Of a stretch of DNA of 64,000 nucleotides, positions 2,765 to 43,689 are shown piece by piece. Source of the stretch: Gammaproteobacteria bacterium (GTDB lineage: Bacteria; Pseudomonadota; Gammaproteobacteria; Ga0077536); NCBI GenBank assembly GCA_016209015.1, contig JACQWY010000011.1, positions 40,922 through 104,921 on the forward strand. The letters run 5' to 3'. The notes beneath the pieces were generated by a model. It worked only from the letters and a program-made list of their open reading frames with translations, ran no database searches and was not told the DNA's origin. The position numbers were made by a program, and so were the translations under genes. The stretch's first letter is position 1; each line of letters starts with the position of its first letter.

Positions 2765-3100
2765 TCAGACCCGGACGTCCACGTACATGCCCTTGTAGGC
2801 TGACGTGGCGGCCCCGCCCATGTTCTCGATCATCGCCGCGAGCAATGCCGACGGCCCCTGGCGGCGACTCTGCCATGCCGCCTCGGGCGAGGCATTCGGC
2901 GCGCTGCGCGCCTCGCCGTCCGCGAATCCCGTGTGGACGTCCGGCTCTCGCGCGGCCGCGCCCGTGGCGCGGCCGGCCTCGTCGGCCTGGGCCGGCCGCG
3001 TATAGGGCCCGCGCCGCGCACCCGCGATGCCCGGGCCGTCAGCCTGCCAGGTCGGCAGGCCGGCACTGTAGGGATAGACGCTGAGCGCACCGACGGCCAT
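2765..3100 (-). CDS. Small hypothetical protein, last gene of TPS locus 1
   Basis: ATG 6 nt after the sapC stop on the same strand; C-terminus AMIENMGGAATSAYKGMYVDVRV resembles the KG-x-x-VD-x-x-V ends of small YjfB-like proteins (recollection, unverified). Confidence 0.5.
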   Translation of the reverse strand: MAVGALSVYPYSAGLPTWQADGPGIAGARRGPYTRPAQADEAGRATGAAAREPDVHTGFADGEARSAPNASPEAAWQSRRQGPSALLAAMIENMGGAATSAYKGMYVDVRV

Positions 3101-3106
3101 GACGTG

Positions 3107-3853
3107 CTAGCCGCCCTCCGCTCGCGCGGGGCCCTGATTCGCCGCGAGCTTGTCGACGTTGGCGAGGGAATGCAGGTGCAGGTACAGCAACTCGAGATAC
3201 TCCTGGGCGACCAGTGCGTGGACCTGCGTCGCCGTGAGGGCCTTGATGCGGGCCCGTGTGGCGCACAGGAACCCGTTCAGGGCGAACGTCTCGCCATCCC
3301 CCAGCTTGACGGTCGCCTGCATCGGCTCGAGCAGGTCGGCAGCGACGACGGCGGCGCAGAAGGCAGCCGTCGCCTGGGTCTGGCGATGGTATTCCTCCAG
3401 GAATTCTAGGCACTGGCGCACGGCCGGGCCAGCCTCGCCGCGCTCGTCGAGCAGCTTCGCCCCTTCGGCGACGGTGTTGAAGCCCGAATAGGTCTCGTCG
3501 ATGCACACCGTGTAGCGGTCCGGCGCGGCGGCGTCGGGCACGGGCATGAAGGGATAGCGCCGCAGATAGGCGGGCAGGTATCGGCCGGTCCACCGGCCCT
3601 GGGCGTCCACGACCGCATTGCGGCCCGGCCGCAGACCCAGCAGCGCAACCGGGGCTACGGTACCGTCGTCGCGGCTCAGGAAGACGATCGGAAAGTCGCG
3701 GGCGGCGGGCGGGAATTCGATAGCAGCGAGCGGCAGGACCTGCGCCCCGGCCGCGAAGCGATAGCCGTGATCCGGATCGAGATACCACTCGCGATGCCGC
3801 GTCCGGTCGAGCGGCGTCAGATTGCGGTAGAGCGCCGGCAGCCCGGGCGCCAC
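3107..3853 (-). CDS. SapC family protein (copy 1)
   Basis: EFPPAARDFPIVF, PVALLGL, YLPAYLRRYPF, LYLHLHSLANV motifs typical of SapC; GTG start abuts the tpsA stop; no signal peptide. Confidence 0.88.
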   Translation of the reverse strand: MAPGLPALYRNLTPLDRTRHREWYLDPDHGYRFAAGAQVLPLAAIEFPPAARDFPIVFLSRDDGTVAPVALLGLRPGRNAVVDAQGRWTGRYLPAYLRRYPFMPVPDAAAPDRYTVCIDETYSGFNTVAEGAKLLDERGEAGPAVRQCLEFLEEYHRQTQATAAFCAAVVAADLLEPMQATVKLGDGETFALNGFLCATRARIKALTATQVHALVAQEYLELLYLHLHSLANVDKLAANQGPARAEGG

Positions 3854-3854
3854 G

Positions 3855-6800
3855 TCAGTAGCGCGCGTGGACCGCCGGCAGTAGGAGCTCGCCCTGCCAG
3901 CGCACGCGGCCCGTCGCGTCGATGGCGACCGCTCCGTGCGGCGTCGCGTCCGCGTTGTCGGCGAGGCTCAGTATGAACGAGTCGTCGATGTCCTCTTCGA
4001 GCTCCTCGAATTCGCCGGGCGCGGCCGCGGGCTTGCCGGCCGGCTTCGGCGCGGCCTTCGGGGCCGGCGCGGGCGTCGGCTTCGGGGCGGCCGGTGCGGG
4101 CACGGCGGGCTTCGCGGCCGGCGCGGGCTGGACCGGCGCGGCCTTCGGCTTGTCGTCGAACGTCTCGTCGAGCTCTTCGAATTCCGCCGGCTTCGCGGCT
4201 GGCGCGGCCGGCGCCGGAGCGGCCTTCGGCGCGGCCTGGGGCTGCGTCGCGGAGGGCTTCTCGACCTCTTCGAAATCCTCTTCCGGCGCGGGTTGATTCG
4301 CCGCGGGTGCGGGCGGTTTGCCCTTCGCGCCGCCGACGTCGAGGTCCTCGAAATCGTCCTTGCGCGATTCCTCCTGCGCCTCCTGGTAATCCTGGAGCTG
4401 CTTCTTGTAGCCCTCGAAGCTCGCGAGCTGCCGCTCGTATTCCGCGACGAGGTCCTTGCGTTCGCGACCGCCGCCGCGTTCCCCTTTGCCGCGCTGCTTG
4501 AGCACGTCCAGGCGCGCCTTCAGGCCCGCGATGAGCTTGTCGAGCTCTTCCATCGTCACGTTCGGCGCGCAGCCGTCCTTGTCCTCGCACTGGTCGAGCG
4601 AGAGCGCGATGCCGTTGCCGAGCACGCCGAAGAGCGTCAGATCCTGCTCGAACACGCCGACGTCGACGAACTGCACGTTCTGCAGACCGGTCAGCGCCGC
4701 CGCCGGGTTGCTGAACACGACCTGCACCGCCTGTACGCCGATGGGATTCGTCAACGAGGAGATGATCTTCAGGGCCGTCGGGTCGAACGTCTGGGAGGTC
4801 GCGTTCGAGGACGGATCGAAGGTCGGTTGCTGCACCGAGGACGAGACGGCGACGAGCACCGGTCCGCCGCCGAGGTCGAGACGGATGTTCTGGTTGTTCA
4901 CGATCGCGTTGTTCGCGATGAGCACCGCCTTGTCCGCCGTGATGCCGACCGTGCCCACGGTCGGGCCCGTGATGTCGCCCGAGGCGGAGCCCGTGCCCTG
5001 CGTATCGCCCACGGCGAGCATCGTGACCTGCCCGCCGGTCGCCGCGAGATCCGCGAGCAGATCGATGTTGCTCGCGAGCAGCGTCACGTCGCCGTGCGTC
5101 GCGAACGTGCTGCCGACGGTGATCCGATCCGCGTTGATCTCGTCGACCCGTGCATCCTCGGCCGGCCCCGTGCGCGGCGTCAGGATGCCGCCGACAATCA
5201 GATGACCGTGATAACCGGAGAAGGCCGTCGAGGAGAGGTGCCGGGCTGCAACCGTCGTGTCGATCAAGAGGTCCGTGCCGGCCGTCGGGTTGATGTCGAG
5301 ACTGCCGTTGCCGACCACCGAGCCCGCGAACGTCCAGGTGTTCGTGCTCGACTCGGCGAGCACGTCACCGGCGATGTCGGCATTGCCGTTGAATACGAGG
5401 TTGGCGCCGTGCAGATCGCCGTTGAACGTCGTGCTGCCTGAATACGTCTGCGAGCCCGTCGTCGTCACCGCGCCGATGACGGAATTCGCGCTCGCGATGT
5501 CGACGCTGCCCGCGGCGATCGCGCCGCCCACCGTGAAGCTGCCGGCGGGCGCCTGCGCGCTGAACGCGCCCGAGTGCGCATCGACCGCGCCGCCGAGCAC
5601 GATCGCACCGCCGCCGGTCGAGATCGTCGTCGTGCCGCTCGTCGTGAGCGCGCCGCCGAGCGTGAAGTTGCCGCCGCCCGTACTCGCGACGACCCCGGCG
5701 CTGCCCGTCAGCGCGCCGGTGATCGCCATGGGCGCCGCGGCGCTCGTGAGCGTCAGCGCGCCGCTGCTCGTGACGTTGCCGGCGATCGTGATTGCGCCGG
5801 CGGTGATCGACTGCACACCGGCCGTCACGACGTTGCCCTGCACGTTGAGCGCCGTGCCGCCGGTGTCGATGTTCGCGGTCGCGAGCGTGATCTGGGGCGC
5901 GGTGAACGTACCCGAGATGCCCGCGACGGCGCCGAAGGCCAGCGTCGCATTCGCGCCCTGCGCGGTGAGGTTCTGCACGTTCGTGAACGCGTTGCCGTTC
6001 ATCGTGCCGGCGTTCGCGCCGGTGATGTTCCAGCCGTTCACGATGCCGTTGCCGACGAGCTCGTTCGTGCCGGCGCCGCCGTCCATCGTGCCCGAAACGA
6101 GCACGCCCGCGCCGCTGATGACGTAGCGATCCGCGGCTGCGCCGCCGGTCAGGTTCTCGACCCCGGTGAACGCGAAGCTGTCGAGCGTGCCCTGGTTCGC
6201 CGCGGTGACGGTCCAGGTGTTCGCGACGTCGTCGGCGATCAGCGTGTCGGCGGCGGACGCGCTGCCGGTCAGCGCCTCGACGTTCGTCGTGCCGCCCGCG
6301 GTCGTCACGAGACTCGCCGTGTGGTTCTTCAAATCGACCGTGATCGGGCCGGCGAGCGCGCTGTAGTCGAGGCGATCCGTGCCGACGCCGCCATCGAGCG
6401 TCGCATAGCCCGCGGCGCCCGAGAACTGGAACGTGTCGTCGGCGCCGCCGCCGACGAGCTGCGAGACGTTCGTGAACGCCGAATTGCCGCCGATGTCGCC
6501 GGCGTTCGCGCCGTTGAGGTGCCAGGTGTTCGCGACGTCGCCGCCCTGGATCGTGTTCGTGCCGAGTCCGCCGTCGATCGCGCCCGCGAACGCCGAGGCA
6601 CCGACCACGACGAACGTATCGCCCGCGCTGCCGCCGGTGACGTTCATGATGCCGGAGAAGCTGCCGCCGAGTCCTGTCCCCGCCCCCGTGATCGTGCCCG
6701 AGGTGGCGCCCGTCAGCGTCCAGCTCGTCGCGACGTTGTCGCCGGTGATCGTATTCGTGCCGCCGCCGCCGTTGATGCTGCCCGTCAGCCGGCCGCCGGC

Positions 6801-9800
6801 GGTAAAGACGAAATCGTCGTTCGCGCTGCCGCCCTGCAGGTTGCCGACGTTCGTGAACGTCGCATTGTTTATCCCGACCACGATCTGGAACGTGTTCAGA
6901 CCGTTGATGGTCCAGGTCGCGTTCGAGTTCGGGCCGATGATCGTGCTGAGCGAATTGTTCGTGACGTAGACGTCGATGCCGGTGAAGCCCGGCCCGGTCG
7001 CGCCGACGAGCGGGCTCAGATCGCCCTGATCGAGCGTCGCGAGATTCGTGATCGTGAGCGAGACCGCGCTCGTCGAAGCGGACCAGTCGAGCGTGTCGTT
7101 GCCGGCCGCGCCGCCGTTGACGCTGCCCGTGATGCGCGCGTCCGCGCTGAAGACGAAGCTGTCGTTGCCCGTGCCGCCGACGAGATTGCCGGTCAGCACC
7201 GTGCCCGTGCCCCCGATGTTGAACGTGTCGTTGCCGTTGCCGCCGCTGAGATTGCCGGTGTGATTGCCGGTGACGTCGAACGTATCGTCGGCTGCACTGC
7301 CGGTCAGGTTCTCTATCGCCGAGAACGCGAGCGTTCGCAGGCCGACCGTGAAGCTCTCGCTGCCGCCCACCGCCCACGTCGCCGTCGCGACGCCGCCGTT
7401 CGTGAGCGTGTCCGTGCCGGCGCTGCCGACCGCGACGTCGATGTTGTCGAAGCCGGTCGCGAGGAAGTGCTCGGTGCCCTGCACGCCGTCGACCGTGCCC
7501 GATCCAGTCACGGTGAGCGAGGCGACGCCCGCGTTGCCCGCGAAGCTGAGCGTATCCGCGCCGCTGCTGCCGTCGACGTGGCCGATCGTGCCTGCCGCGT
7601 TGCGCGTGACGACGAAGCTGTCCGCGTCCGTGCCGCCGACGAGCGTCGGAAAGTCCGCGAACGTCAGCGTGCCGGCCCCGCTCGCCAGCGTGCCGCCGTT
7701 CGCGGCATTGATCGTCCAGGTATTCGTCGCGTTCGGACCGGTGAGTTGTCCCGCCGCGCCCGTCCTGTTCGCGATGGACTCGATCCCGCTGAAGCCGGCG
7801 GCGATGCTCGCCTCCGTGCCGCTCGCCCCCGTCGCATCGAGGGCGGTGACGACTACCGTCCGTCCCGTGGCGAACGCACTCCAGTCGAGCGTGTCGGTGC
7901 CGCTGCCGCCCGCGACCGCGCCGGTCTGGGAGCCGGTCGTGAACGCGAACGTATCGGCGTTCGTGCCGCCCGCGAGGTTCGCGAAGTTCGTGTAGGCCAT
8001 CGTGCGCCCGCCGCTCGTCACCGAGCCCGTGTCCGCGCCGCTGATCGTCCAGGCGTTCACGAGGTTCGCGCCCGTGAGCGTGCCGGGGAAGGCGCCCGGG
8101 TTCACGAGCGCGGTGATGTCGTCGAAGCCGCCGCCGATGCCCGTCACCGTACCCTGGAAACCGACCGTCGTGCCGAGCGCGGTCAGCGTCACGTCGTGCG
8201 CGGCACCGGACGTCGACCAATCGATCGTGTTCGCGCCGGCGCCGCCGTCGATGTTGCCGGTGAAGCTCGCATTCGGCGTGAAGGTGTCGACGACGCCGCC
8301 GCCGAGCAGCGTCTGGATGCCCGAAAAATTCGTCGTGAGGCCGCCCACGGTGATCGAGCCGCCGGTCGCGGAATCGAGCGTCCAGGTGTTCGCGGCCGCA
8401 GCAGCACCGGTCACTTTGTTCGTGCCGCCGCCACCGATGATGCTGCCGGCGATCTGGCCGCCGCTCGAGAAGCGGAAGTCGTCGTTGCTCGTGCCGCCGA
8501 CGACCAGGAAATTGTTGAACGTGTTCTCGTTGCCGGTCGTCGGTCCGAACGTGCCCGAGTTGACGCCGGTGATCTTCCAGATCGTGCTCGCCTGCGTGCC
8601 GGCGTCGGGGCCGTAGATCGCGCCGAGGCCGTTGCCGGTGACGGTCTGGACGTTCGTGAAGGTCGGGACGAGATCGACGTCCGGGGGCGAGGCGATCAGG
8701 GCCTCGTCGAGGATCGAGCCCGAATTCGCCGCGCCGCCGACCGTGTACTTCAGCGCGAGTGTCGAGCCGCTGAAGTCGATCACGTTCACGCCCGCGCCGC
8801 CGCCGCCGTCGACGCTGCCCGAGATCCGGCCGTGCACGGCGCCTGCGCTCGTGAACACGAAGCTGTCGGCGCCCGTGCCCCCGGTCAGGCTGCCGAAGTT
8901 CGTGAACGTCATCCCGCCGTTCACGTCGCCGAGGTCGAGATCGCTGACGTTGAACGTCGTGCCGGTATTGCTCGCGACGAGCGTGTTCGTGCTGGCCGTG
9001 CCGGCGGCATCGACGCTGCTCAGGTTCGAGACGAGCGCGAGATTGAAGGTGACGCCCGAGGCCGCGAAGTGCACGGCGTTCGTACCGCCCGCGCCGCCGT
9101 CGACCGTGGTGGTTCCGAGCGAGGTGACGCCGATGGGGAAATCGAAGGTGTCGTTGCCGGCGTTGCCGACGAGATTGCCGATGCCGGTGAACGTCGCCGT
9201 GCCGCCGAGCGTCGCGACGCTGCCGTCCGTCGCGTTCGTCATCGTCCAGGTATTCGCCGCGTTGTCGGCCGTCAGGGTATTGCCGCTCGCCGTGCCGCCG
9301 CCGCTCAGGCTGCCGGAGATCATGCCGCCGCCGGTGAACGCGAAGGCATCCGTAGCGGTGCCGCCGGTCAGCGTCTTGAACTCCGAGAACGCGACCGAGC
9401 CGCCGCCACTCGCGAGCGTTCCGGAATTCGCGCCGGTCACGGACCAGGTGCTCGCGGCATTCGGACCGGTGAGCTGTCCCGGCGCGCCGGTCTTGCCGAT
9501 CAGGGTTTCGACGTTCGCGAAACCGCCGATGACGCTGCCGGCCTCGAGGCCGTCCGCGCCATTCGCGTCGAGCGCCGTGATGGAGACGTCGCGCGTCGTC
9601 CCGTAGTTGCTCCAGTTGATGGTGTCCGAGCCGCCGGCGCCGTCGATGGCGACGACCGTGAACGCGCCCGCCGCGAACACGAACGCATCGGCGTTCGTCC
9701 CGCCCTGCAGGCCCTCGAAGCTCGAGAACGTCACCGTGCCGCCGGCATTGACGACGTTGCCGGAGTTGTTGCCGGTGATATTGAACGTGTTCGCCACATT

Positions 9801-16025: not shown

Positions 16026-16067
16026 CGCGGGTCTCGCTACGCGGCAGCGCTCGCTGCGGGCGGGTCG

Positions 16068-16111
16068 ATGGTAGTGCGGGCATTGGTCCGTCGTCCATGA
16101 GTTGTTTCACA
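16068..16111 (-). promoter_or_regulatory. Candidate CRP/Vfr-type site plus -10 element upstream of giant tpsA
   Basis: CATGA-N6-TCACA at 16096-16111 (8/10 to TGTGA-N6-TCACA); minus-strand TACCAT at 16073-16068; site centre about -42.5 from the inferred +1. Confidence 0.35.
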
Positions 16112-16126
16112 CGCGGGCGGCGGAGG

Positions 16127-17944: not shown

Positions 17945-18015
17945 TCTTCCCCCACTTACGCCGATACCGGCTCCGTACCCGGCGCGCGGACTTCGCGCCC
18001 CGGCCGCCGCTCGGC

Positions 18016-18044
18016 AGTATATCAATGCCCTCAGCGGGGCACAA
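18016..18044 (-). promoter_or_regulatory. Sigma70-like promoter for tpsB1
   Basis: Minus strand TTGTGC-N17-TATACT in an AT-rich gap. Confidence 0.5.
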
Positions 18045-18099
18045 TAAAACTTCCCTGAGGAATTAGTCGTTTAGGGCTTGGTCTTTGCGCAGATCCTGA

Positions 18100-19194: not shown

Positions 19195-19442
19195 ATCGGG
19201 TCTCCTGATCGATTGCCGCCGTGCCGACGGCGCAGCGCGTGCGGGCAGGCCGGCGCGGCCGGCGCCGCGGGCCGTCGGCCGGCGCTTCGCGGCGCGGAAG
19301 GCGCTCTTCTACTCATGGAAAATTTCGCTTAAAGTATAACCACTTCCGTAGCGAAGTTCGTATGCCATCGTATCACCTGGATGTAATACATGCCCCTGAC
19401 GAGGACCTCCAGTTGAGCAATCTTTCCGGGACCGTTTGAAAG

Positions 19443-20342: not shown

Positions 20343-20487
20343 ACGCCGCCATAGTCGGGACCGTACGCTGCGACGGGCCGGCCGCCGACTCATGGGCGAC
20401 CGGCGCCGACGCCTCACGAAATGATTCATTCGTCACCTCCGGGCGCGGGCCGGCGGGGCGGCAGTCGGGACGCGTTGGGGACCAGCA

Positions 20488-21219
20488 TTGAACAGCCACT
20501 CCGAGCCTCAGTTTTCCTGGCGGTCCTACGCCGTCTCTCACGTGGGCAAGGTGCGCAAGCTCAACGAGGATGCCTGTCTCGATCGCCCCGAGGTCGGCCT
20601 GTGGGCGATCGCCGACGGCATGGGCGGACACTCGGCCGGCGATCTCGCGAGCCAGCTCGTCATCAACGTGCTCTCGAAGATCAAGCCGCACGCCGAGCTC
20701 TCGTCGCTCGTCGATTTCGTCGAGCACGGCATCATCTCGGCGAACACCCGCCTGTTCGATCTCGCGGCAGCGAGCAATCAGACGATCGGCAGCACCGTCG
20801 TCACGCTGCTCTGCGCGCAGGGTCATTGCGTCTACATGTGGGCCGGCGACAGCCGGCTCTATCGCCTGCGCGGCGGCAGGCTGCAGCAGCTCACGACGGA
20901 TCATTCGCAGGTCGAGCTCTACGTCCAGCAGGGTCTCATCCGGCGCGAGGACGCCTCCGCCCACCCCGCCGGCAATCTCGTGACGCGGGCGGTGGGCGCG
21001 TCCGGCGAATTGCACCTCGATCTGGACATCGGGAGGCTGGCGGCCGGCGACCGCTTCCTGCTCTGTTCCGACGGGCTCATCCGCCACGTCACGTTCGAGG
21101 AAATCGAGAGCTCGCTCGGCGAACCGAGCGCCGAGCTCGCGGCCGAGCGGCTGCTCGGCATGACGCTCAGTCGCGGCGCGGTCGACAACGTTTCGATCTG
21201 CGTCGTCGAAGTGGTATGA
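20488..21219 (+). CDS. PP2C/PPM-family Ser/Thr phosphatase (PppA/Stp1-like)
   Basis: GKVRKLNED, ADGMGGHSAG, AGDSRLY, TTDHS, LLCSDGL, DNV motifs intact; TTG start. Confidence 0.93.
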   Translation: MNSHSEPQFSWRSYAVSHVGKVRKLNEDACLDRPEVGLWAIADGMGGHSAGDLASQLVINVLSKIKPHAELSSLVDFVEHGIISANTRLFDLAAASNQTIGSTVVTLLCAQGHCVYMWAGDSRLYRLRGGRLQQLTTDHSQVELYVQQGLIRREDASAHPAGNLVTRAVGASGELHLDLDIGRLAAGDRFLLCSDGLIRHVTFEEIESSLGEPSAELAAERLLGMTLSRGAVDNVSICVVEVV

Positions 21220-21306
21220 AAGCAGGAGGCACCGGTCTGCGCGCGCCACGACGCGCGGGATCCTCGGTCCGGGGACGGCACACAACTTTTTCCAAGGTAA
21301 ACGCGC

Positions 21307-24300
21307 GTGGCTGATTTCAAGACTGCCCTGGCGGCGTTGACGCGGGGCGAGGTCGCATTCGAGACCTTCATCGACAACATCGCAAAGCTCCTGGAGACGC
21401 GGCCGCAAGCCGCAGTTCAGGTGATGAATCAACTGCGCGAGGCCTATGGCGAGGACGTGATCGACGCGGCCACCTACGCGCGCCTGAAGCGCAGCGTGGC
21501 CGAGCTCGCGGCGCCGTCGCCGGATGACGACGCGCGCACCGAGACCGGCGCGCGGACCGTCTACGAGCCGCTCGCGGAGTCCGAGGCGAAGACCGTCTTC
21601 GCCGGCGACGAGGCGACGAGCGGCTACGAGATCGATCGCGACGGCGCGACCCAGCTCCTCGGCGACGTCGACCACGACGCACCGACCGCGTTGCACACCG
21701 TGCGCACCTCGCCGCCCGAGGCGTCGGGCCTCGACTTCGACATCACCGGCGACAGCCAGCCGAGCACGGGCTCTTCCTGGGATTCCTCGCTGCCGACGAT
21801 GCCGCCGCGCGCGGAGCTCAAAATCGCGCCCGGCACGGTGCTGAAGGAACGCTTCCAGCTCGACGAGGTACTCGGCGTCGGCGGTATGGGTACCGTGTAC
21901 AAGGGCCGCGACCTCATCAAGGTCGAGGCGCGCGACAAGAATCCCTACGTCGCCTTGAAAGTGCTGAACGAGGACTTCAAGAAGCACCCGGACGCGTTCA
22001 TCGCGCTCCAGCGCGAAGCGAGCCGCCAGCAGAAGCTCGCGCATCCGAACATCGCGACGGTCTACGATTTCGATCGCACCGGCGGCGGCACCGTCTTCCT
22101 GACGATGGAAATGCTCGTCGGCACGCCGCTCAACAATTACATCAAGAAGGACGTGAAGGCGCGCGGCGGTCTGCCGTTCGCGGAAGCCTTCCCGATGATC
22201 CAGGGCCTCGGCAACGCACTCGTCTACGCCCACGAACGCAACATCGTCCATTCCGACTTCAAACCCGGGAACTGCTTCCTGACGAAAGACGGCACGATGA
22301 AGGTGCTCGACTTCGGCATCGCGCGCGCAGTGAAAAATCCCGGCCAGGGCGAGGGCGAGAAGACGCTGTTCGACCCGGGCAAGCTCGGCGCGCTGACGCC
22401 GGCCTACGCGAGCGCCGAGATGCTGGAGGGTCAGGAACCCGATCCGCGGGACGACATCTATGCGCTCGCCTGCGTCGCCTACGAGCTGCTGACGGGACGG
22501 CATCCGTTCAACAAGCTGCCCGCGAACAGCGCGCGCGACAACAAGCTCGTGCCGCAGCCCGTGAAGGGTCTGAAGCGCAAGCAGCAACGCGGCCTGATGC
22601 GCGGCCTGGCCTTCGATCGCAAGAATCGCAGCCAGAGCGTCGCGGAATTCCTCGAAGAGCTCGAGGGCCGGACGTCGCCGTTCAGGAATCCGTTCATCAT
22701 GGTGCCCGCGGCCGTCGTGCTGCTCGCCGTCGCCGGCGTCTATCCGACCCTGAACGTCCTGCACCAGCGCGACATCGCGGGTCGCATCGCACTCGCGAAG
22801 ACGGGCGATGCGGCGACGATCGATCGGGTGCTGACCGGCCTCGCCACGCTCGACAATCCGGCCGATCGCGACCAGGTGCTCGTCGCGGCGCGCGAGGAAA
22901 TCTTCAAGTACTACCAGGCCAGGATCAACGAACGGATCGACACCGAGCACAAGCAATACGACTTCGCCGGCGCCCGCGCGCTGATCGAGAGGATCTCCGC
23001 CTTCGACGTCTACAAGGACTCGGCCCAGGTGAAGGCGATGAAGCAGCAGATCGACGACAGCGAGAACGTGCTGCTCGCGCTGCAGACCGAGCAGTTCAAT
23101 ACGGCGCTCGAGCAGGAAGCGCTGCTGCCGACCGCCGGCGGGACGAACGTGCTCGGCGTGATCGAGACCGTGGCGAAATTCGCGCCCGATGCCGCGAAGC
23201 AACTGAAGAAGCGTCTGTCCGGCCCCTATTCAGCCGCGATCACGAAGGCGATCGCCGACAAGGACTTCGAGCGCGCGAAGACGCTGGGCACCACCGGTAT
23301 CGGTCTCCTGCCCGACAGCAGGAACCTGCGCAACCTCATGGACAAGGTCGGCAGCGAGCAGGAACGCTACGAGCTCGCCGCGCAGATCCTCGGCCTGACG
23401 GGCCGCATCCAGGCCGCGCTCGACGGCTACAAGGCGCTCGACGCCCTGCGCGACGTGCGCAGCGACGTCGTGGAGCTCGCGAAGATCGATCCCGGCAATC
23501 ATCTACTCGAGGAGATCGCGAAGAAGATCGGCGCGGGCGTCGACAAGGACCTCAAGGATCTGCAGGCTTCGCACGCCTGGGGCCGCAGTCTCGTCGTGCA
23601 GCAGGAGTACGCGCCGATGTTGCGCGCGGTCGGGCTGCAGGACGCCGCGCTCGCCGCGGCGAAGCTGCGCGACGAATTCACGGGCGAGGTCGGCAAGCGC
23701 GCGGGCGCGGTCCTGCAGGCCGTCGCCGGAGACGCGATCGCACCGCCCGCGAGCCCGAACGCCGTCGACGGCCTGAAGGAGCTCGCCGCGATCGCGCCCG
23801 AGGACAACCGCACGCTGCAGGTCCGCGACGTCGTCGCGCACGCCCTGCTGCGCAGCGCACGCCTCGCCCGCGCGAAAGGCGACGAAGCGCATGTCGCGCC
23901 CCGTCTGCAGCTCGCCGCGGCGCAGTCGCCGAGCCCGGCGGTCGCGAAGCTCATCGGCGATGCCGCCCAACCCGCGGCGGCCGCGACACCGGATCACGCG
24001 GCCTTCCAGACCGCGCTCGCCGCGCTCGGCAACGACCCCGCGAAGCTCCCCGCCATCCTCGCCGCGCTCGATGCGCTCGAAGCCGCGAAGCCCGATGCGC
24101 CCGAGCTCGCGACGGCCCGCGACGCCACCGCCACGGCGGCGGCCGCGCTCGCCGACGAGCTCGGCAAGGCGGGAAAATGGGACGACGCGCTCGCCGCGGC
24201 CTGGTCTGCTGCGGCACTCGCCCCGGCCGCGCCCGGCTTCGGCGACAGGCTCGCCGCGCTCGACACGAGCCGCCTGCAGGCGCGCGCGGAAGCCGAACGC

Positions 24301-26178
24301 AAGCTCGTCGCCGACAGCAAGCAGGCCGTCGAACAACTGCTCGCCGCACCGAGCGCGGATCGCGAGTGGAACTCGAAGGTCCAGCAGCGCATGGCGGACG
24401 TCCTGGGCCTCGCGGATCCCAAGGATCCCTGGCTCGCCGAGTACCGCGGCAAGCTCGCCGCGGTCTACGTCGAGAAGGCGAAGGGCATGCGCGAAGCCGA
24501 GCGTTTCGCCGAGGGCGGCAGCCTTCTCGAGCGCGCCGCGCGCTATGCCCCGGATCTTCCCGCGCTCGCCGCGGAACGCCAGGCGCTCGCCGCGGCGAAC
24601 GAAGCGTTCGAGAAAGAACAGCGCGAGCAGGAACTCGCCGCCCGGATCGAAGGTTTCAAGCAGACGTTCGCGACGCAGGCGAAGGCGAACGACGTCGTCG
24701 GCGCCGCGAAGACGCTCGAGCAGATCACGGCCGAAGTCGGCGGCGACGACGCCTTCGTCGCGACCGAGGCCCCGCAAGTGCTCGGCAAGGCCTATCTCCG
24801 TCTCGCGGTCAGCAAGGCCGAGGCGCAGGATTTCGCGGCCGCGCTGAAATTCGCGAAAGCGGGCCTGAAGCTGCAGCCGAAGGATCAGGAACTGCGTCTC
24901 GCCGTGAAGGACTACACCGTGAGCGGCAACACGCAGGACCTCGGCAATACGTTCGCGCGCAATCCGAACTTCGACGTCGCCGAGGTGCTCGACAAGATCG
25001 CCGAGGTGCAGACGCTCGATCCGAAGGTCTACGGCGAGCAGGAAGCGGCCTGGGCGAAAGCCGTCGCCGCGCGTCTGAATGCGCCCGAGGAGAACGCGGA
25101 TGCCGAAGCCGCGAAGAAGCTGCTGCAGCACGCGAAGGAAGTCTTCGCCGGCAACCAGCTCATCGCCGCGCTCGAGCCCGTGCCCCTCTTATCCGCGCCG
25201 ACGCCCGAAATTGCGGCGATCGAGAAGGCGATCAACGCCGCGCTGTTGACGCAGGCGCGCGATCTCATCACCGCCGCGGCCGCGAAGAACCCGGACAGCG
25301 CGGACGTCGTACGGCTCAAGGGCCTCTACAACGGCCGTCTGAAGCAGGTGAAGTCGCTCTACGAGGATTACAAGACGGCGTTCACGGCGAAGGATTACGA
25401 GAAGGCGAATCAGATCCTCGACAAGGCCCTCGGCATCTGGGCCGACAGCGCGACGTTCAAGAAGGAGAAGTCCCGCGTGGTGGCGGCGCTCAAGCCCGGG
25501 GCCTCGGTGCAGGAGGAGACGAACCTGCTGCCGCCGCCGCCGTCGAAGAGCCCGTGCACGGATCAGCTCGCGGGCCACGGCAAGCGCAAGCAGGGCACGT
25601 GCTTCGACATGATCGACCAGACCGCGCGCGGTCCGCTGATGGTCGTCGTGCCGGGCGGCGGCGCCGCCGCGCACGCGTTCGCCATCGGGCGCTACGAAGT
25701 GTCAGTCGGCGACTACAACGCCTACTGCCAGCTCTCGGGCAAGTGCCAGCCCGTCGCGGGCAGCGATCCGGATCTGCCGGTCACGAACATCACGCTCGAG
25801 CAGGCGAATGCCTACGCGACCTGGCTGTCCGCGCGCACCGGCAAGACGTATCGGCTGCCGACGGTGCAGGAATGGAGCTATGCCGCCGAGGCGGCGGGCG
25901 ATCAGCCGCAGAAGGACTACAACTGCCGCGTCGAGCAGGGCGGTCAGATCATGAAGGGCCAGTCCGCAATGGACGTGAACAGCGGCAAGCCGAACGGCTG
26001 GGGGCTCTACAACTACGTGGGCAACGTCCAGGAATGGGTCAAGAGCGGCGGCGGGGTGGTCGTGCGCGGTGGCGCGTTCGAGGACACGTTCAGCAAGTGC
26101 AACATCAATCTCGAAAAGCCGCACGACGGCAAGGCCGACAACGTCACCGGCTTCCGGCTCGTCCTGGATCTCGGTTGA
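21307..26178 (+). CDS. Membrane Ser/Thr (Hanks) kinase with long helical/TPR-like region and C-terminal FGE-sulfatase-like domain
   Basis: LGVGGMGTVYKG, VALKVL, HSDFKPGN, DFGIARA, TPAYAS-E, DIYALAC; one TM (FIMVPAAVVLLAVAGVY); C-terminal YEVSVGDYNAYC, YRLPTVQEWSYAA, GNVQEW, VRGG, GFRLV. Confidence 0.92.
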   Translation: MADFKTALAALTRGEVAFETFIDNIAKLLETRPQAAVQVMNQLREAYGEDVIDAATYARLKRSVAELAAPSPDDDARTETGARTVYEPLAESEAKTVFAGDEATSGYEIDRDGATQLLGDVDHDAPTALHTVRTSPPEASGLDFDITGDSQPSTGSSWDSSLPTMPPRAELKIAPGTVLKERFQLDEVLGVGGMGTVYKGRDLIKVEARDKNPYVALKVLNEDFKKHPDAFIALQREASRQQKLAHPNIATVYDFDRTGGGTVFLTMEMLVGTPLNNYIKKDVKARGGLPFAEAFPMIQGLGNALVYAHERNIVHSDFKPGNCFLTKDGTMKVLDFGIARAVKNPGQGEGEKTLFDPGKLGALTPAYASAEMLEGQEPDPRDDIYALACVAYELLTGRHPFNKLPANSARDNKLVPQPVKGLKRKQQRGLMRGLAFDRKNRSQSVAEFLEELEGRTSPFRNPFIMVPAAVVLLAVAGVYPTLNVLHQRDIAGRIALAKTGDAATIDRVLTGLATLDNPADRDQVLVAAREEIFKYYQARINERIDTEHKQYDFAGARALIERISAFDVYKDSAQVKAMKQQIDDSENVLLALQTEQFNTALEQEALLPTAGGTNVLGVIETVAKFAPDAAKQLKKRLSGPYSAAITKAIADKDFERAKTLGTTGIGLLPDSRNLRNLMDKVGSEQERYELAAQILGLTGRIQAALDGYKALDALRDVRSDVVELAKIDPGNHLLEEIAKKIGAGVDKDLKDLQASHAWGRSLVVQQEYAPMLRAVGLQDAALAAAKLRDEFTGEVGKRAGAVLQAVAGDAIAPPASPNAVDGLKELAAIAPEDNRTLQVRDVVAHALLRSARLARAKGDEAHVAPRLQLAAAQSPSPAVAKLIGDAAQPAAAATPDHAAFQTALAALGNDPAKLPAILAALDALEAAKPDAPELATARDATATAAAALADELGKAGKWDDALAAAWSAAALAPAAPGFGDRLAALDTSRLQARAEAERKLVADSKQAVEQLLAAPSADREWNSKVQQRMADVLGLADPKDPWLAEYRGKLAAVYVEKAKGMREAERFAEGGSLLERAARYAPDLPALAAERQALAAANEAFEKEQREQELAARIEGFKQTFATQAKANDVVGAAKTLEQITAEVGGDDAFVATEAPQVLGKAYLRLAVSKAEAQDFAAALKFAKAGLKLQPKDQELRLAVKDYTVSGNTQDLGNTFARNPNFDVAEVLDKIAEVQTLDPKVYGEQEAAWAKAVAARLNAPEENADAEAAKKLLQHAKEVFAGNQLIAALEPVPLLSAPTPEIAAIEKAINAALLTQARDLITAAAAKNPDSADVVRLKGLYNGRLKQVKSLYEDYKTAFTAKDYEKANQILDKALGIWADSATFKKEKSRVVAALKPGASVQEETNLLPPPPSKSPCTDQLAGHGKRKQGTCFDMIDQTARGPLMVVVPGGGAAAHAFAIGRYEVSVGDYNAYCQLSGKCQPVAGSDPDLPVTNITLEQANAYATWLSARTGKTYRLPTVQEWSYAAEAAGDQPQKDYNCRVEQGGQIMKGQSAMDVNSGKPNGWGLYNYVGNVQEWVKSGGGVVVRGGAFEDTFSKCNINLEKPHDGKADNVTGFRLVLDLG

Positions 26179-26229
26179 GCCGCGACGGATGGGGAAACGT
26201 GTGACCGCGACTGGGGACGGCATCACGAC

Positions 26230-27930
26230 ATGCAGACGCTGAGAGCGCTCGCCGCGGATTATGCGGAAGGCCGGATCGATCGCAAGACGTTCATCACCGA
26301 GCGACGCCGCCTCATCGACGGCATCGTCGCCGGCGAGATCCCGTTGCCCGAGGAAGCGCCGCCCGCCGCGCCACCGCCGCAGGCCGAGGGCGACGAGGAC
26401 ATCACCGTCGACGTCGCGGAGCAGTCTGCGGAGCCGGTCCCCGCGGCCGCGCCCACGGCCGTCGCGCCCCGCAAGTCGGGACGCGGCGCCGGCATCGCCG
26501 TCGCGCTCGGGATCGCGGCCGCGCTGGCCTTCGGCGCAAAGCAGTTCCTGGCCCCGACGACACCCGCCACGACGGCGGCGCCCGCGACGAACGTGGCCGC
26601 GCAGCCTTCGCTCGTCGCCCGCTTCATCGCCGGGAACCACTGGGACGAAACGGCGCTGCTGAAATTCACCGAGCAATGGCAGGCGCTGCCCGAGGCGGAA
26701 CGCAAGAGCCTGCGCGGCACGCCGGCGATGAGCCAGTTGAGCGATCTCCTGCAGACGCGCTTCAACGAGGCGCGCGCGCTGCTCGAGCTCGGCGATCGCG
26801 ACGGAGCGCTCGCGACCCAGCGCCGTCTGCTCGAGCTCGCGCAGGCGCTCGAGATCAGCAATGAGCGGATCGACCGCATGGCGGCCGAATGGCGGGTCGC
26901 GATCGCGAGTCCGGTGAAGCCTGGCGCCGCGAAGCCGGTCGCGGCCGCGACGGCGCCCGCTCCCGCTGCCACCGCGCCCACGGTCGCGGACGCACCGGCT
27001 GCGGCAGCGCCCGCGGAGGCCGTCCCGGATGCGGCCCCCGCGCCGACGGCCGCCACGCCCGTGGAAGCTCCGCCTCCCGTAGCGGCCCCGTCGGAAGCAT
27101 CCAAGGCGCTCGAGCCCAAGCCGGCCGCCACGGAGCAGGCAGCGCCGGAATCCGCCGCCGAGGGCCCGTCGTCTCCCGGCTGCAGTGCCGCGCTCGCGAC
27201 GCAGCGCCGTCCGTATTGCCGCGACAAGCTCGGCAACGGCACGGGTGGACCGCTGCTCGCCGTCGTGCCGCACGGCGCCTACACCATGGGCGGGCGGCGG
27301 CCCGAGGAGGCGCCGCGCCATCGCGTCGACGTCGCCCGGGCTTTTGCGATGAGCGTCTTCGAGGTGAGCACGGCGGATTTCGCGGCGTTCTGCAAGGCTG
27401 CGGGCGCGGGTTGCCCCGCCCAACCCTGGAACGAAGCGCGTCTGCCCGCCGTCAACGTGCCGTGGAAGCTCGCCGCAGCCTACGCCGAGTGGCTGTCGGC
27501 CCAGACGCATGCGCACTACCGCCTGCCCAGCGAGGCCGAATGGGAATACGCGGCGCGCGCCGGCACGGACACCGAATACCCGTTCGGGGACGAGCTCCTG
27601 CCGACCCATGCGCGCTTCAGCTTCCAGGGCCCGCAGACGATGCCGCTCGCGGCCGACGATCGTTCCGTCAATAAGAACCGCTTCCGTCTGTATCATATGG
27701 TCGGCAACGTGCGCGAATGGGTCGCGGACGCCTGGAACGCCGGTTACGTCGGTGCGAGTGAAGAGGCGACGGCCCGCACCGCGCCGGAATCCGGACCGCA
27801 CGTCGTACGCGGCGGGTCGTATGCCGATCCCGCGGAACGCCTGCGCTCCGCGGCGCGCGGTCCGGGCGCGGACGAGGGCGACGCGTTCACGGGCATCCGC
27901 CTCGTCCGCGACTTGCAGACAGCTCCCTAG
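26230..27930 (+). CDS. Membrane protein with Pro/Ala linker and C-terminal FGE-sulfatase (SUMF1/EgtB/PvdO-like) domain
   Basis: TM GAGIAVALGIAAALAFG; YRLPSEAEWEYAARAGT, LYHMVGNVREWV, VVRGGSY, GIRLVRD. Confidence 0.88.
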   Translation: MQTLRALAADYAEGRIDRKTFITERRRLIDGIVAGEIPLPEEAPPAAPPPQAEGDEDITVDVAEQSAEPVPAAAPTAVAPRKSGRGAGIAVALGIAAALAFGAKQFLAPTTPATTAAPATNVAAQPSLVARFIAGNHWDETALLKFTEQWQALPEAERKSLRGTPAMSQLSDLLQTRFNEARALLELGDRDGALATQRRLLELAQALEISNERIDRMAAEWRVAIASPVKPGAAKPVAAATAPAPAATAPTVADAPAAAAPAEAVPDAAPAPTAATPVEAPPPVAAPSEASKALEPKPAATEQAAPESAAEGPSSPGCSAALATQRRPYCRDKLGNGTGGPLLAVVPHGAYTMGGRRPEEAPRHRVDVARAFAMSVFEVSTADFAAFCKAAGAGCPAQPWNEARLPAVNVPWKLAAAYAEWLSAQTHAHYRLPSEAEWEYAARAGTDTEYPFGDELLPTHARFSFQGPQTMPLAADDRSVNKNRFRLYHMVGNVREWVADAWNAGYVGASEEATARTAPESGPHVVRGGSYADPAERLRSAARGPGADEGDAFTGIRLVRDLQTAP

Positions 27931-42860: not shown

Positions 42861-42941
42861 GGGGAATCCTGGTTCCGGATTGAGGCTGCATGGTAAGAGG
42901 GACGCCCGGGCGGTTCAAGCGAACCGGGACGTCGCGCGCGC

Positions 42942-43676: not shown

Positions 43677-43689
43677 CGTCGGCCGTGGC

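Follow-up and report, generated by a model that had tools for sequence, protein, structure and literature searches.

The window, a 64-kb stretch of DNA from a groundwater bacterium, holds two divergent operons bounded by leuC (640-2040) and a Sel1 gene (2149-2727) on one side and by ubiG (28005-28703) on the other. The minus-strand operon runs from a membrane-anchored PpiC/parvulin-type PPIase (18100-19194; rotamase families, E 1e-17 to 6e-18) through TpsB, the Omp85-type outer-membrane transporter for TpsA (16127-18025; ShlB E 3.5e-18, POTRA_2 E 7e-13), to the 4,056-residue TPS-domain exoprotein TpsA (3855-16025) and a SapC-family protein (3107-3853; PF07277, E 1.4e-66; Pfam/NCBIfam). Across a divergent intergenic region (19195-19442), the plus strand encodes a class III cyclase fused to an FHA domain (19443-20342; Guanylate_cyc E 1e-20, FHA E 1.4e-11), a PP2C Ser/Thr phosphatase (20488-21219; PP2C_2 E 1.6e-11), a 1,623-residue receptor Ser/Thr kinase (21307-26178; Pkinase E 5e-34, FGE-sulfatase E 1e-19), and a single-pass FGE membrane protein, FGEmem (26230-27930; FGE-sulfatase E 2e-40). 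All eight genes that the first-pass annotation had placed between leuC/Sel1 and ubiG were found with Pfam and NCBIfam, two of them in a corrected frame: the ORF at 16107-18044, which overlaps tpsB, was rejected as an Arg-rich wrong frame, and the PP2C ORF starting at 20421 was likewise in the wrong frame, the corrected gene being 20488-21219.

The earlier start coordinate of the system, 2765, belongs not to sapC but to a separate small conserved ORF of 111 residues (2765-3100, minus strand; GC3 0.88) with no Pfam or NCBIfam match. Its C-terminal ~33 residues (pattern ..AM.E.MGGA.TS..KGM.V...V) are 55 to 59% identical in L043, L047, L049, and L057, loci in which it is still present despite the absence of TPS genes, and it may lie outside the system. 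The earlier statement that the window has no T6SS gene agrees with our scans, in which the window ORFs scanned gave no tss-family match; T6SS families had no match among the 20 GC3-supported ORFs scanned from 28 to 64 kb, an interval with five further, shorter ORFs. The ORFs scanned in that interval are mainly housekeeping genes and include a second TPS locus. No gene for CRP or another cAMP receptor was found in the 64-kb window.

The TPS domain of TpsA (residues 65-299, nt 15129-15833; E 2e-34; TIGR01901 E 6e-23) was detected only by scanning the N-terminal 500 residues alone. It is followed by a body of Gly/Thr/Ala-rich repeats with 22 RTX-like G[GS]xGxD motifs (1.7 in shuffles) and by a C-terminal module (residues 3773-4056; nt 3858-4709, minus strand) that holds the only two Cys of the protein, within a conserved block (CEDKDGC, nt 4569-4589). 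The module also contains a coiled coil, a Pro/Ala-rich spacer in which four acidic [DE]F[ED][ED][LV] motifs are set (DFEDL, DFEEV, and EFEEL twice), and an extreme C terminus of the form G.V.W..G..LP...RRY. It is kept at 34 to 58% identity in 14 giant homologues, among which the repeat body varies, and in L066 the tpsA gene is replaced by a 192-residue ORF consisting of a signal peptide and this module alone, with tpsB, sapC, and the kinase operon all still there. HMW1 and FhaB are familiar examples of proteins whose C-terminal part is located in the periplasm. By analogy with these two and with CdrA (PMC4694147), the module is predicted to lie in the periplasm and is a candidate retention or signalling tail.

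The companions of TpsA in the operon are less uniform in what they reveal. The tpsB gene is conserved next to tpsA in related loci. SapC, encoded directly downstream of tpsA, has no signal peptide; neither its AF2 model (pLDDT 70) nor its sequence had a match in the PDB. The second TpsA of the window is also followed by a SapC gene, and in L063, L066, and L076 SapC adjoins exoprotein or cyclase genes. The PPIase, product of the first gene of the operon, has an N-terminal hydrophobic segment (residues 3-21) and is probably a periplasmic chaperone.

On the signalling side, the cyclase-FHA protein is soluble, with its cyclase domain at nt 19449-19940, its FHA domain at nt 20040-20312, and an invariant EDVTRMS segment (nt 19971-19991) in the linker between them. 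Nearly all of the ~80 orthologues conserve cyclase residues D14, K54, D58, D113, N120, and R124, which supply the ATP-specifying Lys and Asp, the two metal-binding Asp, and the transition-state Asn and Arg, along with the pThr-binding residues of the FHA domain (G217, R218, S232, R233, H235, N253, and G254; signature GR/SxxH/NG). Of the solved cyclases, 3mr7 and Ma1120 (4wp9) come closest (E 1e-16), and two Thr of the protein itself, T5 and T180, are conserved. The adjoining PP2C matches NF033484 (Stp1/IreP) at E 1.3e-56, a match under the curated cut-off, and has the DGMGGH and DN motifs; it would be the eraser of a phosphothreonine mark.

The receptor kinase opens with an N-terminal helical domain (nt 21307-21501) and a variable linker bearing the Thr motifs KTVFA and ATQLL (nt 21589-21660), followed by a Hanks kinase domain with HSD and DFG (residues 184-455, nt 21856-22671), a single TM helix (residues 464-482, nt 22696-22752), a periplasmic TPR-like superhelix of ~910 residues (nt 22753-25491), and a non-catalytic FGE-like domain (residues 1456-1619, nt 25672-26175). 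Its catalytic set is complete (Gly loop, catalytic Lys, HSD..N, and DFG), and the kinase domain is closest to PknB (E 2.5e-35). An AF2 model of the ectodomain (pLDDT 84) shows ~45 helices plus an alpha/beta domain, with long TPR solenoids as the best PDB matches. The ectodomain is mainly superhelix, and the FGE-like domains, which the first-pass annotation took as the sensors, are candidates for that role. Repeated [AS]-T-x-[FVIL] motifs in the otherwise variable linker are found again in orthologues. In FGEmem, a cytoplasmic tail with a helix and the Thr motif EDITVDVAE (nt 26395-26421) precedes the TM helix (residues 86-107, nt 26485-26550), and the FGE-like domain on the periplasmic side (residues 345-560, nt 27262-27909) is non-catalytic; the solved structure nearest to the protein is PvdO (5hha, E 2e-23). 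Of 41 orthologues, 25 have a Thr motif, described as T-x-[EDQ]-[ILVFM] and also as D-x-T-x-E-[ILV], at a conserved position in the tail, whereas shuffled sequences give 7.7. FGEmem is a candidate TagR-like co-receptor and phosphothreonine docking site, and the near-invariant cyclase and FHA residues, taken with the Thr motifs of the linker and of the FGEmem tail, make plausible the gating of the cyclase by phosphothreonine that the first-pass annotation had proposed.

A possible output of this signalling was seen in the gap between tpsB and tpsA, where a CRP-type box (16096-16111, minus strand; TGTGAAACAACTCATG on the tpsA sense strand) matches 8 of the 10 positions of the consensus TGTGA-N6-TCACA. 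The window's own box has two mismatches, and the count of boxes in the window alone is not above chance (7 versus 11 expected). Across the related loci, a box with at most two mismatches is present in 22 of 41 orthologous tpsB-tpsA gaps, perfectly in 8 of them, and 17 of the 34 boxes with at most one mismatch in 1.19 Mb of loci fall in this gap (binomial 6e-26); in a control test, four control palindromes were found in 0 of 36 gaps versus 15 of 36 for the CRP box. A -10-like hexamer, TACCAT (16068-16073, minus strand), lies 22 nt downstream of the box and so predicts a box centre at about -41.5 to -42.5, in class II geometry, and a TAnnn[TA] hexamer follows the box by 20 to 22 nt (mode 21) in 18 of 20 loci. 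CRP boxes are not enriched in the divergent region (7 of 53 regions versus 8.1 expected), where we also found no sigma-70 consensus promoter. The first-pass annotation had cAMP controlling either expression or deployment of the adhesin; the conserved class II box before tpsA favours expression, while the deployment arm gained no support, transcriptional control of tpsA being all that is indicated.

The arrangement of these genes is far from chance. TpsA-TpsB-PPI facing Cyc-PP2C-STK-FGEmem-UbiG is repeated in order and orientation in about 40 of 80 related loci, over cyclase identities from 81% down to 55%. The loci come from species-level genomes of uncultured Gammaproteobacteria, all of one gammaproteobacterial radiation, and are MAG contigs, so that a gene may in some cases be missing because of the assembly. 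Two of them, L066 and L023, look rearranged. In the 57 loci that could be judged, TPS and kinase are both present in 39 and both absent in 16, with the kinase alone in 2 and TPS alone in none (Fisher p 2.6e-12, phylogeny ignored). At the orthologous leuC-ubiG locus, a quick-search tree of the cyclase implies at least five independent joint losses of TPS and kinase, each of which required two deletions because the genes lost flank a PPI-Cyc-PP2C block that was kept. The co-conservation of signalling and TPS genes, whose absence would have refuted the idea of the first-pass annotation, is seen both in this split and in these losses. Lineages without TPS and kinase have long cyclase branches (0.5 to 1.2 versus a median of 0.1), and all three cyclase-only loci lack a metal-binding Asp (D58S in L033 and L054, D14T in L069). 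Reduced loci carry Cyc, PP2C, and, after PP2C, a mini-ORF that encodes only the FGEmem cytoplasmic tail. Both discordant loci have the kinase without TPS; the kinase is truncated in one of them, L051, and also in its relative L042, whose TPS state could not be judged. Half of the TPS-less loci retain the PPIase gene, which is therefore not strictly TPS-specific.

We consider it somewhat better than an even bet that the two divergent operons form one unit, a phosphothreonine-to-cAMP pathway controlling transcription of a giant TPS surface protein. The observations beneath this reading are the gene content, the domains with their intact residues, the co-conservation and co-loss, the Thr motifs, and the CRP-type promoter geometry; we infer from them every biochemical step, as well as the cue, the cAMP receptor, and which of the Thr motifs the FHA domain really binds. 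In this scheme the kinase ectodomain, with its TPR-like superhelix and FGE-like domain, would sense a cue from the periplasm or the envelope, and the TagR-like FGE membrane protein is a probable partner in sensing. The kinase would then phosphorylate itself on the Thr motifs of its cytoplasmic linker, or FGEmem on the motif of its cytoplasmic tail, or both, and docking of the FHA domain on pThr would recruit the cyclase, which would dimerise and become active until PP2C reset the switch. A CRP/Vfr-type activator, its gene lying outside the window, would respond to the resulting cAMP and, from the class II site near -41.5 in the tpsB-tpsA gap, would turn on tpsA (and sapC) separately from ppi-tpsB. 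Several observations count against this scheme: with HSD the kinase is of the non-RD kind, and the motifs of its linker differ in number and sequence, a good CRP box is missing from 19 of the 41 orthologous gaps, the window's own box is imperfect, and the cyclase-FHA protein and PP2C are retained where kinase and TPS have both been lost, as the PPIase is in some TPS-less loci. The retention of the cyclase-FHA protein implies that it also has kinase-independent or TPS-independent roles, or is served by another kinase. Because the window has no cAMP-receptor gene, the box could also be read by a CRP/FNR-family protein that does not bind cAMP.

The flow of information might instead be reversed or form a closed loop, with TpsA or its secretion state as the signal, a possibility that we rate as appreciable but do not expect to prevail. 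The C-terminal module of TpsA would stay in the periplasm and be read by the TPR superhelix and FGE-like domains of the kinase, so that cAMP would change when the adhesin engages at the surface, is lost, or becomes jammed, and cAMP-CRP acting on tpsA would be the feedback arm. The constancy of the module beside a variable repeat body speaks for this, as do its possession of the only two Cys of TpsA and the persistence in L066 of a signal peptide-module ORF together with tpsB, sapC, and the kinase operon, although the L066 locus comes from just one MAG contig, in which the assembly may have collapsed. Long TPR-type solenoids bind extended peptides, and the C-terminal end of CdrA, also a TPS adhesin, is processed by LapG in the periplasm (PMC4694147); the topology of the module here, however, is our conjecture. 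The order of loss, in which TPS disappears while the kinase is kept or truncated and the opposite is never found, is what one would expect if the kinase had no further use after the loss of TpsA, but a giant gene is a larger mutational target and could account for the same order. This reading is compatible with the phosphothreonine-to-cAMP pathway that we prefer.

We think it unlikely that the main target of the signalling operon is not TpsA but, for example, a T6SS or some other process encoded elsewhere. The tpsA box would then be read by a CRP/FNR regulator blind to local cAMP, for example a Clp-like, c-di-GMP-responsive one, and the window has no cAMP-receptor gene. With a weak box in the tpsB2-tpsA2 gap of the second TPS locus as well, boxes of this kind may belong to a general regulon, and the 13 TPS-less loci that retain cyclase-FHA and PP2C show that these proteins have work without TPS. 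Set against this are the absence of TPS without kinase (0 of 39 loci), the lack of a tss-family match among the window ORFs scanned, the loss of a catalytic Asp from partnerless cyclases, and a different clade, with another gene order, in which cyclase-FHA comes straight after the gene for a giant exoprotein and sapC. The two operons might also be neighbours only because a stable stretch of the chromosomal core, from leuC to ubiG, was inherited as it stood, without functional coupling. This might be suggested by the housekeeping surroundings, the same flanks in nearly all loci, and the single radiation from which the loci come, but is very improbable given the repeated joint losses by two separate deletions apiece, the lack of any locus with TPS but without kinase, the CRP-type site conserved exactly at tpsA beside a gene for a cAMP synthase, and the faster evolution of the cyclase, with dropped catalytic residues, after its partners are lost.

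The systems closest in logic are the T6SS pathways PpkA/PppA/Fha1/TagR of the P. aeruginosa H1-T6SS and PpkA/TssL-pThr/Fha of A. tumefaciens, for which the earlier background on TagR, PpkA, and Fha proved correct (PMC13713981, PMC3953482). The FGE domain of TagR binds the PpkA ectodomain in Pseudomonas (PMC13713981), and in Agrobacterium Fha binds phosphothreonine on the membrane protein TssL (PMC3953482); these interactions parallel the FGE domain and the tail of FGEmem. Common to these pathways and the present locus are a Hanks kinase that crosses the membrane once and has a periplasmic domain, a PP2C encoded next to it, a reader with an FHA domain, and an FGE-like accessory protein in the periplasm. 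The resemblance may be one of analogy or of homology. With the T6SS Fha model, whose cut-off is 120 bits, the FHA part reaches 35.9; it is fused to an adenylate cyclase and is not a TagH/Fha1 orthologue. The periplasmic domain of PpkA is of von Willebrand type, whereas the kinase here has its own FGE-like domain after the superhelix. The partner here is a type Vb (TPS) system in a window whose scanned ORFs lack tss genes, and the pathway is proposed to act through a diffusible second messenger on transcription, unlike the machine assembly controlled in T6SS.

Other parts of the scheme have separate precedents. PknB-type receptor kinases of Actinobacteria have the FHA partners GarA/OdhI and FhaA, which dock on T-Q and T-x-hydrophobic motifs in juxtamembrane or linker segments; our system resembles these in its kinase domain, in candidate docking motifs of this kind, and in a PP2C of Stp1/PstP type but differs in its Gram-negative host, its TPR and FGE-like ectodomain in place of PASTA, and its cyclase as FHA effector. 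Par27 is a parvulin chaperone for secretion of Bordetella FHA and, like the PPIase here, ties a periplasmic parvulin-type protein to a giant TpsA substrate, although the present PPIase is membrane-anchored, encoded within the TPS operon, and kept in some TPS-less loci. For the TPS operon exlBA of P. aeruginosa, the cAMP that Vfr needs comes from the global cyclases CyaA and CyaB, and we know of no dedicated cyclase, kinase, or phosphatase alongside that operon. Vfr binds the exlBA promoter and activates it through a site reported as a species-specific acquisition (PMC7049718). Such CRP-like control of a TPS promoter is predicted here too, but from a site in the tpsB-tpsA gap that many species have kept. 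CdrA is a large TPS adhesin under post-translational control by LapD-LapG, c-di-GMP, and periplasmic proteolysis (PMC4694147), and it shares with our proposal the tie to a cytoplasmic nucleotide messenger and the handling of a C-terminal end in the periplasm; no LapD or LapG homologue was seen here, and our evidence points to transcriptional control. According to the abstract and outline of the report on DgcB of Bdellovibrio bacteriovorus (PMC6733907), this FHA-GGDEF diguanylate cyclase is gated by binding of a pThr peptide, its own N-terminal tail, to make c-di-GMP, and that outline names no dedicated neighbouring kinase, phosphatase, or secretion system. The cyclase-FHA protein here is likewise a second-messenger synthase fused to FHA, with similar gating proposed, but its catalytic domain is that of a class III cyclase and bears ATP-specifying residues, and its best candidate ligands are the linker of the kinase and the tail of FGEmem, although its own T5 and T180 are conserved as well.

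We found no paper on this gene cluster in the literature, and it is apparently both conserved and undescribed. If the phosphothreonine-to-cAMP reading is right, its two divergent operons would act as a single unit through which these bacteria set the transcription of a giant TPS surface protein.

The eight genes listed in the first-pass annotation were all borne out by the ORF listing and family scans, and they form two operons set back to back. The minus-strand operon encodes a membrane-anchored PpiC-type peptidyl-prolyl isomerase (PPIase; 18100-19194, Rotamase families), TpsB (16127-18025), the giant exoprotein TpsA (3855-16025), and SapC (3107-3853, PF07277). The plus-strand operon encodes a class III cyclase fused to an FHA domain (cyclase-FHA; 19443-20342, Guanylate_cyc and FHA), a PP2C phosphatase (20488-21219, Stp1-like), a 1623-aa Ser/Thr kinase (21307-26178, Pkinase and FGE-sulfatase), and a 566-aa FGE membrane protein, here called FGEmem (26230-27930). 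The start that had been assigned to the cluster, 2765, belongs instead to a separate small conserved ORF (2765-3100, minus strand, 111 aa) that matches no family. Its C-terminus is conserved (..AM.E.MGGA.TS..KGM.V...V), and it is kept between Sel1 and the PPIase gene in four related loci that lack the two-partner secretion (TPS) genes (L043, L047, L049, and L057). Two ORFs among the longest, 16107-18044 and 20421-21314, were rejected as wrong frames. The cluster is flanked by leuC, a Sel1-repeat protein gene, and UbiG, and the window has a high G+C content (~68%); its remainder consists of housekeeping genes (HAD, sdhAB, dsbB, maeB, ffh, radA, dnaB, and rnr) and a second TPS locus, and its sole Rfam match is a tRNA (63751-63832). 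The window DNA comes from a groundwater metagenome; the sequencing-run search matched it in DNA runs from such metagenomes only and found no RNA runs containing it.

SapC had no sequence match in the PDB, and its AF2 model (pLDDT 70, from a five-sequence alignment) had no Foldseek match at E < 0.4; that search showed no kinship with cupins. SapC is placed after a TpsA twice in the same window. The second TPS locus (41772-51721, minus strand) has the order GT-TpsB2-TpsA2-FecR-SapC2, with genes for a glycosyltransferase-like protein (50450-51721), TpsB2 (48682-50394), the 1388-aa TpsA2 (44388-48554), a FecR-domain protein (43690-44397), and SapC2 (42942-43676), all on the minus strand, as is a 362-aa ORF of no family within the locus.

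The plus-strand operon had been compared with the threonine phosphorylation checkpoint of the type VI secretion system (PpkA, PppA, Fha1, and TagR), a background that was correctly described and agrees with the literature, and the logic of that checkpoint had been proposed to be repurposed here. The likeness of logic stands: both systems join a membrane Hanks kinase to a neighboring PP2C and an FHA protein, and FGEmem is a candidate counterpart of TagR. Membership in the T6SS pathway does not, on two defining points. The absence of tss genes from the window, remarked from the sequence, agrees with the Pfam scans, in which none of the ORFs covered (all but five shorter ones in the 28-64 kb part) matched a T6SS family. 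In addition, the FHA protein is a cyclase fusion and not a member of the TagH/Fha1 family (TIGR03354 gave 35.9 bits against a cut-off of 120.25, in a match limited to the FHA core). Our reading is that the system would work like the T6SS checkpoint but be coupled to cAMP and to type Vb secretion.

The TPS assignment rests on domain matches in both partners. The N-terminal TPS domain of TpsA occupies aa 65-299 (PF05860, E = 2e-34; TIGR01901, E = 6e-23), and TpsB, whose gene ends 101 nt upstream of tpsA, is an Omp85-type protein with a POTRA domain (ShlB, E = 3.5e-18; POTRA_2, E = 7e-13). TpsA and its cognate TpsB have the domains that define type Vb systems and are predicted to be such a pair. 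A Pfam search with the entire 4056-aa TpsA returned no match, the TPS domain being found only when the N-terminal 500 aa were searched alone, and this is a warning for the automated annotation of repetitive giant proteins. The body of the protein is a Gly/Thr/Ala-rich repeat carrying 22 RTX-like G[GS]xGxD motifs, compared with 1.7 in shuffled sequences.

On the signaling side, the soluble cyclase-FHA protein matches PF00211 (E = 1e-20), and among solved cyclases it is closest to 3mr7 and to Ma1120, a minimal enzyme from mycobacteria. The metal-binding residues D14 and D58, the ATP-specifying K54 and D113, and the transition-state residues N120 and R124 show little or no variation among ~80 orthologues, which gives the cyclase the class III residue set expected of an enzyme predicted to make cAMP from ATP. 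The FHA pocket is equally well kept in these orthologues (G217, R218, S232, R233, H235, N253, and G254, forming the G-R, S-x-x-H, and N-G motifs). The PP2C gene (PP2C_2, E = 1.6e-11) adjoins that of a Hanks kinase (Pkinase, E = 5e-34) whose layout is a conserved N-terminal helical domain, a variable linker, a PknB-like kinase domain with HSD and DFG motifs, one transmembrane helix (aa 464-482), and an ectodomain. A model of the ectodomain built from 29 orthologues (mean pLDDT 84) consists of ~45 helices and, after them, an FGE-like domain of alpha/beta type. For the helical part, Foldseek found matches among long TPR superhelices (IFT-A, Ctr9, Ski3, OGT, SPINDLY, a periplasmic flagellar scaffold, and LbcA), with probabilities near 1 and low global TM-scores. 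FGEmem has an FGE-sulfatase domain (E = 2e-40) that is predicted to be periplasmic; BLASTP found no similarity between its N-terminus and that of the kinase.

True FGE enzymes carry a catalytic Cys pair close to the C-terminus of the domain. The FGE-like domain of the kinase has one Cys only in the catalytic region (..GAFEDTFSKC..), and FGEmem has no Cys beyond ..VVRGGSYADP... Since both domains are without the pair, they are predicted to be binding modules and not catalytic FGE. PvdO, TagR, and PorK are likewise thought to be FGE-like binding modules, and PvdO is the closest solved relative. The domain of TagR belongs to the same FGE superfamily (PMC13713981).

The TPS genes and the signaling genes are conserved together. 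Cyclase-FHA has thousands of homologues, of which the top ones are 65 to 95% identical and all from uncultured Gammaproteobacteria; in the cluster look-up every named homologue came from an uncultured metagenome-assembled genome (MAG), with no cultured host among them. When GTDB was sampled at one genome per species, at least 519 relatives came up, and 80 loci with 10-kb flanks (numbered with the prefix L) were kept and their arrangement read by tblastn with the window proteins. These loci come from MAGs, in which mis-assembly is possible. The full back-to-back arrangement is present in ~40 of them, down to a cyclase identity of 55%, and the cluster recurs in hundreds of uncultured Gammaproteobacteria from groundwater, soil, sludge, and marine settings. 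Among the 57 loci that could be judged on both sides, the kinase accompanies the TPS genes in all 39 loci that have them, and where the TPS genes are absent the kinase is present in 2 loci and absent in 16 (Fisher p = 2.6e-12, not corrected for phylogeny). The co-conservation on which the proposal of a single system depended therefore holds.

Joint loss of the two gene sets provides a second line of evidence. Reduced loci keep the PPIase, cyclase, and PP2C genes between leuC/Sel1 and UbiG. Of the genes that have gone, those for TPS lay on one side of the kept genes and those for the kinase and FGE protein on the other, so each joint loss takes two deletions. In a quick IQ-TREE phylogeny of the cyclase, joint loss at the orthologous locus occurred at least five times: in L077; in L038; in L044, with intermediates L051 and L042 that have a truncated 462-aa kinase; in L033 together with L054; and in the L024-L049 clade, with intermediate L029. 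Lineages without both sets have long cyclase branches in this tree (0.5 to 1.2, compared with a median of 0.1). In the three cyclase-only loci a metal-binding Asp has been replaced (D58S in L033 and L054, D14T in L069). These loci consist of leuC, (Sel1), cyclase-FHA, and UbiG, with the cyclase at ~10001-10897, 6859-7755, and 10001-10882, respectively, and their cyclases keep all FHA pocket residues. This pattern of residues suggests an FHA-only role once the partners had been lost. The loci form a decay series, from the full cluster through cyclase and PP2C with a Thr-tail mini-gene to a lone cyclase with a dead active site, and this series is a natural dissection of the dependence between the parts.

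A different association with exoprotein genes is seen in another clade (L063, L074, and L076), where cyclase-FHA comes immediately after a giant exoprotein gene's 3' end and, in L063 and L076, after a sapC gene as well, with all of these genes on the same strand. L063 further encodes an FHA-GGDEF protein (7500-8459, minus strand), 4.6 kb from the SapC/cyclase-FHA pair, with the same architecture as DgcB, so that in the L063 genome both a cAMP and a c-di-GMP synthase are FHA fused. Two arrangements of other kinds were seen. In L023 a second, near-identical cyclase-FHA copy directly precedes a piece of a kinase-like gene that covers its C-terminal helical and FGE part, and protein P0151, from the same MAG as L015, has 1672 aa, is annotated as a CHAT-domain protein, and clusters at 90% identity with the cyclase. 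These may be fusions, duplications, or mis-assemblies.

Candidate phosphothreonine sites for the FHA domain are found in three proteins. The highly variable linker of the kinase carries one to several [AS]-T-x-[FVIL] motifs (KTVFA and ATQLL in the window kinase, up to four ATQVM repeats elsewhere). The cytoplasmic tail of FGEmem is a conserved helix with a D-x-T-x-E-[ILV] motif immediately before the transmembrane helix (EDITVDVAE in the window), and of 41 orthologues 25 have the Thr motif, compared with 7.7 in shuffles. In reduced loci that lack the kinase, the TPS genes, and the FGE domain, a mini-ORF after PP2C encodes exactly the FGEmem-tail helix and Thr motif (..LRRLAQAYAEQRIDRRTYIHERRRLIDE..T[IL]ELPR..; for example, L043:5065-5307, L049:11639-11932, and L027:11623-11904); the transmembrane helix is kept in some of these loci and the FGE domain in none. 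We read the core switch as the FHA-cyclase (reader and output), PP2C (eraser), and the Thr-motif protein, which would be the docking site; in full loci the receptor kinase would be its dedicated writer. The proposed docking on the FGEmem tail parallels the binding of Fha to phosphothreonine on TssL (PMC3953482). Within the cyclase itself, T5 is conserved (T-x-x-L) and T180, in the inter-domain linker, is invariant; both are alternative, self-ligand candidates for the FHA domain. In its gating, the FHA-cyclase would parallel DgcB, an FHA-gated diguanylate cyclase (PMC6733907).

The proposed link from cAMP to the adhesin is a CRP-type site in the tpsB-tpsA gap. In the window, a box at 16096-16111 (TGTGAAACAACTCATG on the tpsA strand) has two mismatches and agrees with 8 of 10 consensus positions; the window has 7 such boxes, below the 11 expected by chance, and the box by itself is not significant. 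Significance comes from the orthologues. A box with at most two mismatches is present in the tpsB-tpsA gap of 22 of 41 loci, 8 of these boxes being perfect and 9 having one mismatch, and in 19 of the 36 gaps bounded by both genes, compared with ~3 from shuffles. Across 1.19 Mb of loci, 17 of the 34 boxes with at most one mismatch fall inside this gap (binomial p = 6e-26), and at that threshold four control palindromes, including the FNR box, occur in 0 of 36 gaps, compared with 15 of 36 for CRP. The site has the form TGTGA-N6-TCAC(A/G) on the tpsA strand, and a TAnnn[TA] -10-like hexamer follows 20 to 22 nt past it (mode 21) in 18 of 20 loci. This spacing would place the center of the site near -41.5 from the inferred transcription start, the geometry of a class II CRP promoter. 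Given the conserved box and spacing, tpsA is predicted to have its own conserved CRP-type promoter, separate from that of ppi-tpsB. The divergent region between ppi and the cyclase gene shows no enrichment of CRP boxes (7 of 53 regions, 8.1 expected), a simple scan for promoters and terminators across 15900-19600 yielded no useful result, and the window encodes no CRP/Vfr gene. The tpsB2-tpsA2 gap also has a two-mismatch CRP-like box (48638-48653), and 2 of the window's 7 boxes lie inside the two tpsB-tpsA gaps, which together span 228 nt (p ~3e-4). Control of exlBA by Vfr is a precedent for a CRP-like activator acting on a TPS operon (PMC7049718).

The C-terminus of TpsA raises a further possibility. 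The last 499 aa match no Pfam family, and the final ~285 residues are a module conserved in 14 giant homologues (34 to 58% identity), made up of a strongly conserved block with the only two Cys of TpsA, a coiled coil, a Pro/Ala-rich spacer bearing three to five acidic (D/E)F(E/D)EL motifs, and a conserved extreme C-terminus. Locus L066 has a 192-aa ORF in place of tpsA (5440-6018, minus strand) that consists of a signal peptide and the C-terminal module only (..LAISQCETDEVC.., then coiled coil and acidic tail) and still has tpsB, sapC, ppi, and the entire kinase operon; this is either a tail-only variant of natural origin or the product of a collapsed assembly. Periplasmic C-terminal parts of a comparable kind occur in HMW1 and FhaB. 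The TPS adhesin CdrA, which has a candidate cleavage site near its C-terminus, is cut from the cell surface by LapG, a periplasmic protease (PMC4694147). By analogy, the TpsA tail is a good candidate for a periplasmic element. A periplasmic tail might be read by the TPR superhelix, and this is the basis of a rival to the main model, in which the kinase would act through phosphothreonine, the FHA-cyclase, cAMP, and a CRP-type activator on tpsA as output. In the rival, TpsA would serve the circuit as sensor as well as output, its tail staying in the periplasm and binding or threading into the ~910-aa TPR superhelix of the kinase and the FGE-like domains. If the surface filament made contact, was pulled, or was lost, the result would be Thr phosphorylation, FHA-gated cAMP synthesis, and CRP-dependent re-expression of tpsA. 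We consider this extended role of TpsA rather unlikely, and we know of no such surface-sensing loop on a type Vb adhesin with eukaryote-like phospho-signaling.

The elements of the main model are known singly: a Hanks kinase with PP2C and FHA, messenger synthesis gated by FHA, TPS genes under CRP control, and FGE-like binding domains. No description of the gene combination was found in the literature searched. If the main model is true, this would be the first known case of a class III adenylate cyclase gated by phosphothreonine via a fused FHA domain, a cAMP counterpart of the c-di-GMP enzyme DgcB. It would also be the first known Hanks-kinase/PP2C/FHA checkpoint dedicated to a two-partner-secreted giant surface protein; to our knowledge, such checkpoints have so far been linked with the T6SS and with cell-wall control in Gram-positive bacteria. 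A complete, testable circuit of receptor, writer, eraser, reader-synthase, messenger, and promoter would then lie within 25 kb. Such a circuit could be rebuilt in an E. coli Δcya strain and would therefore offer a handle on when environmental bacteria make very costly adhesins.
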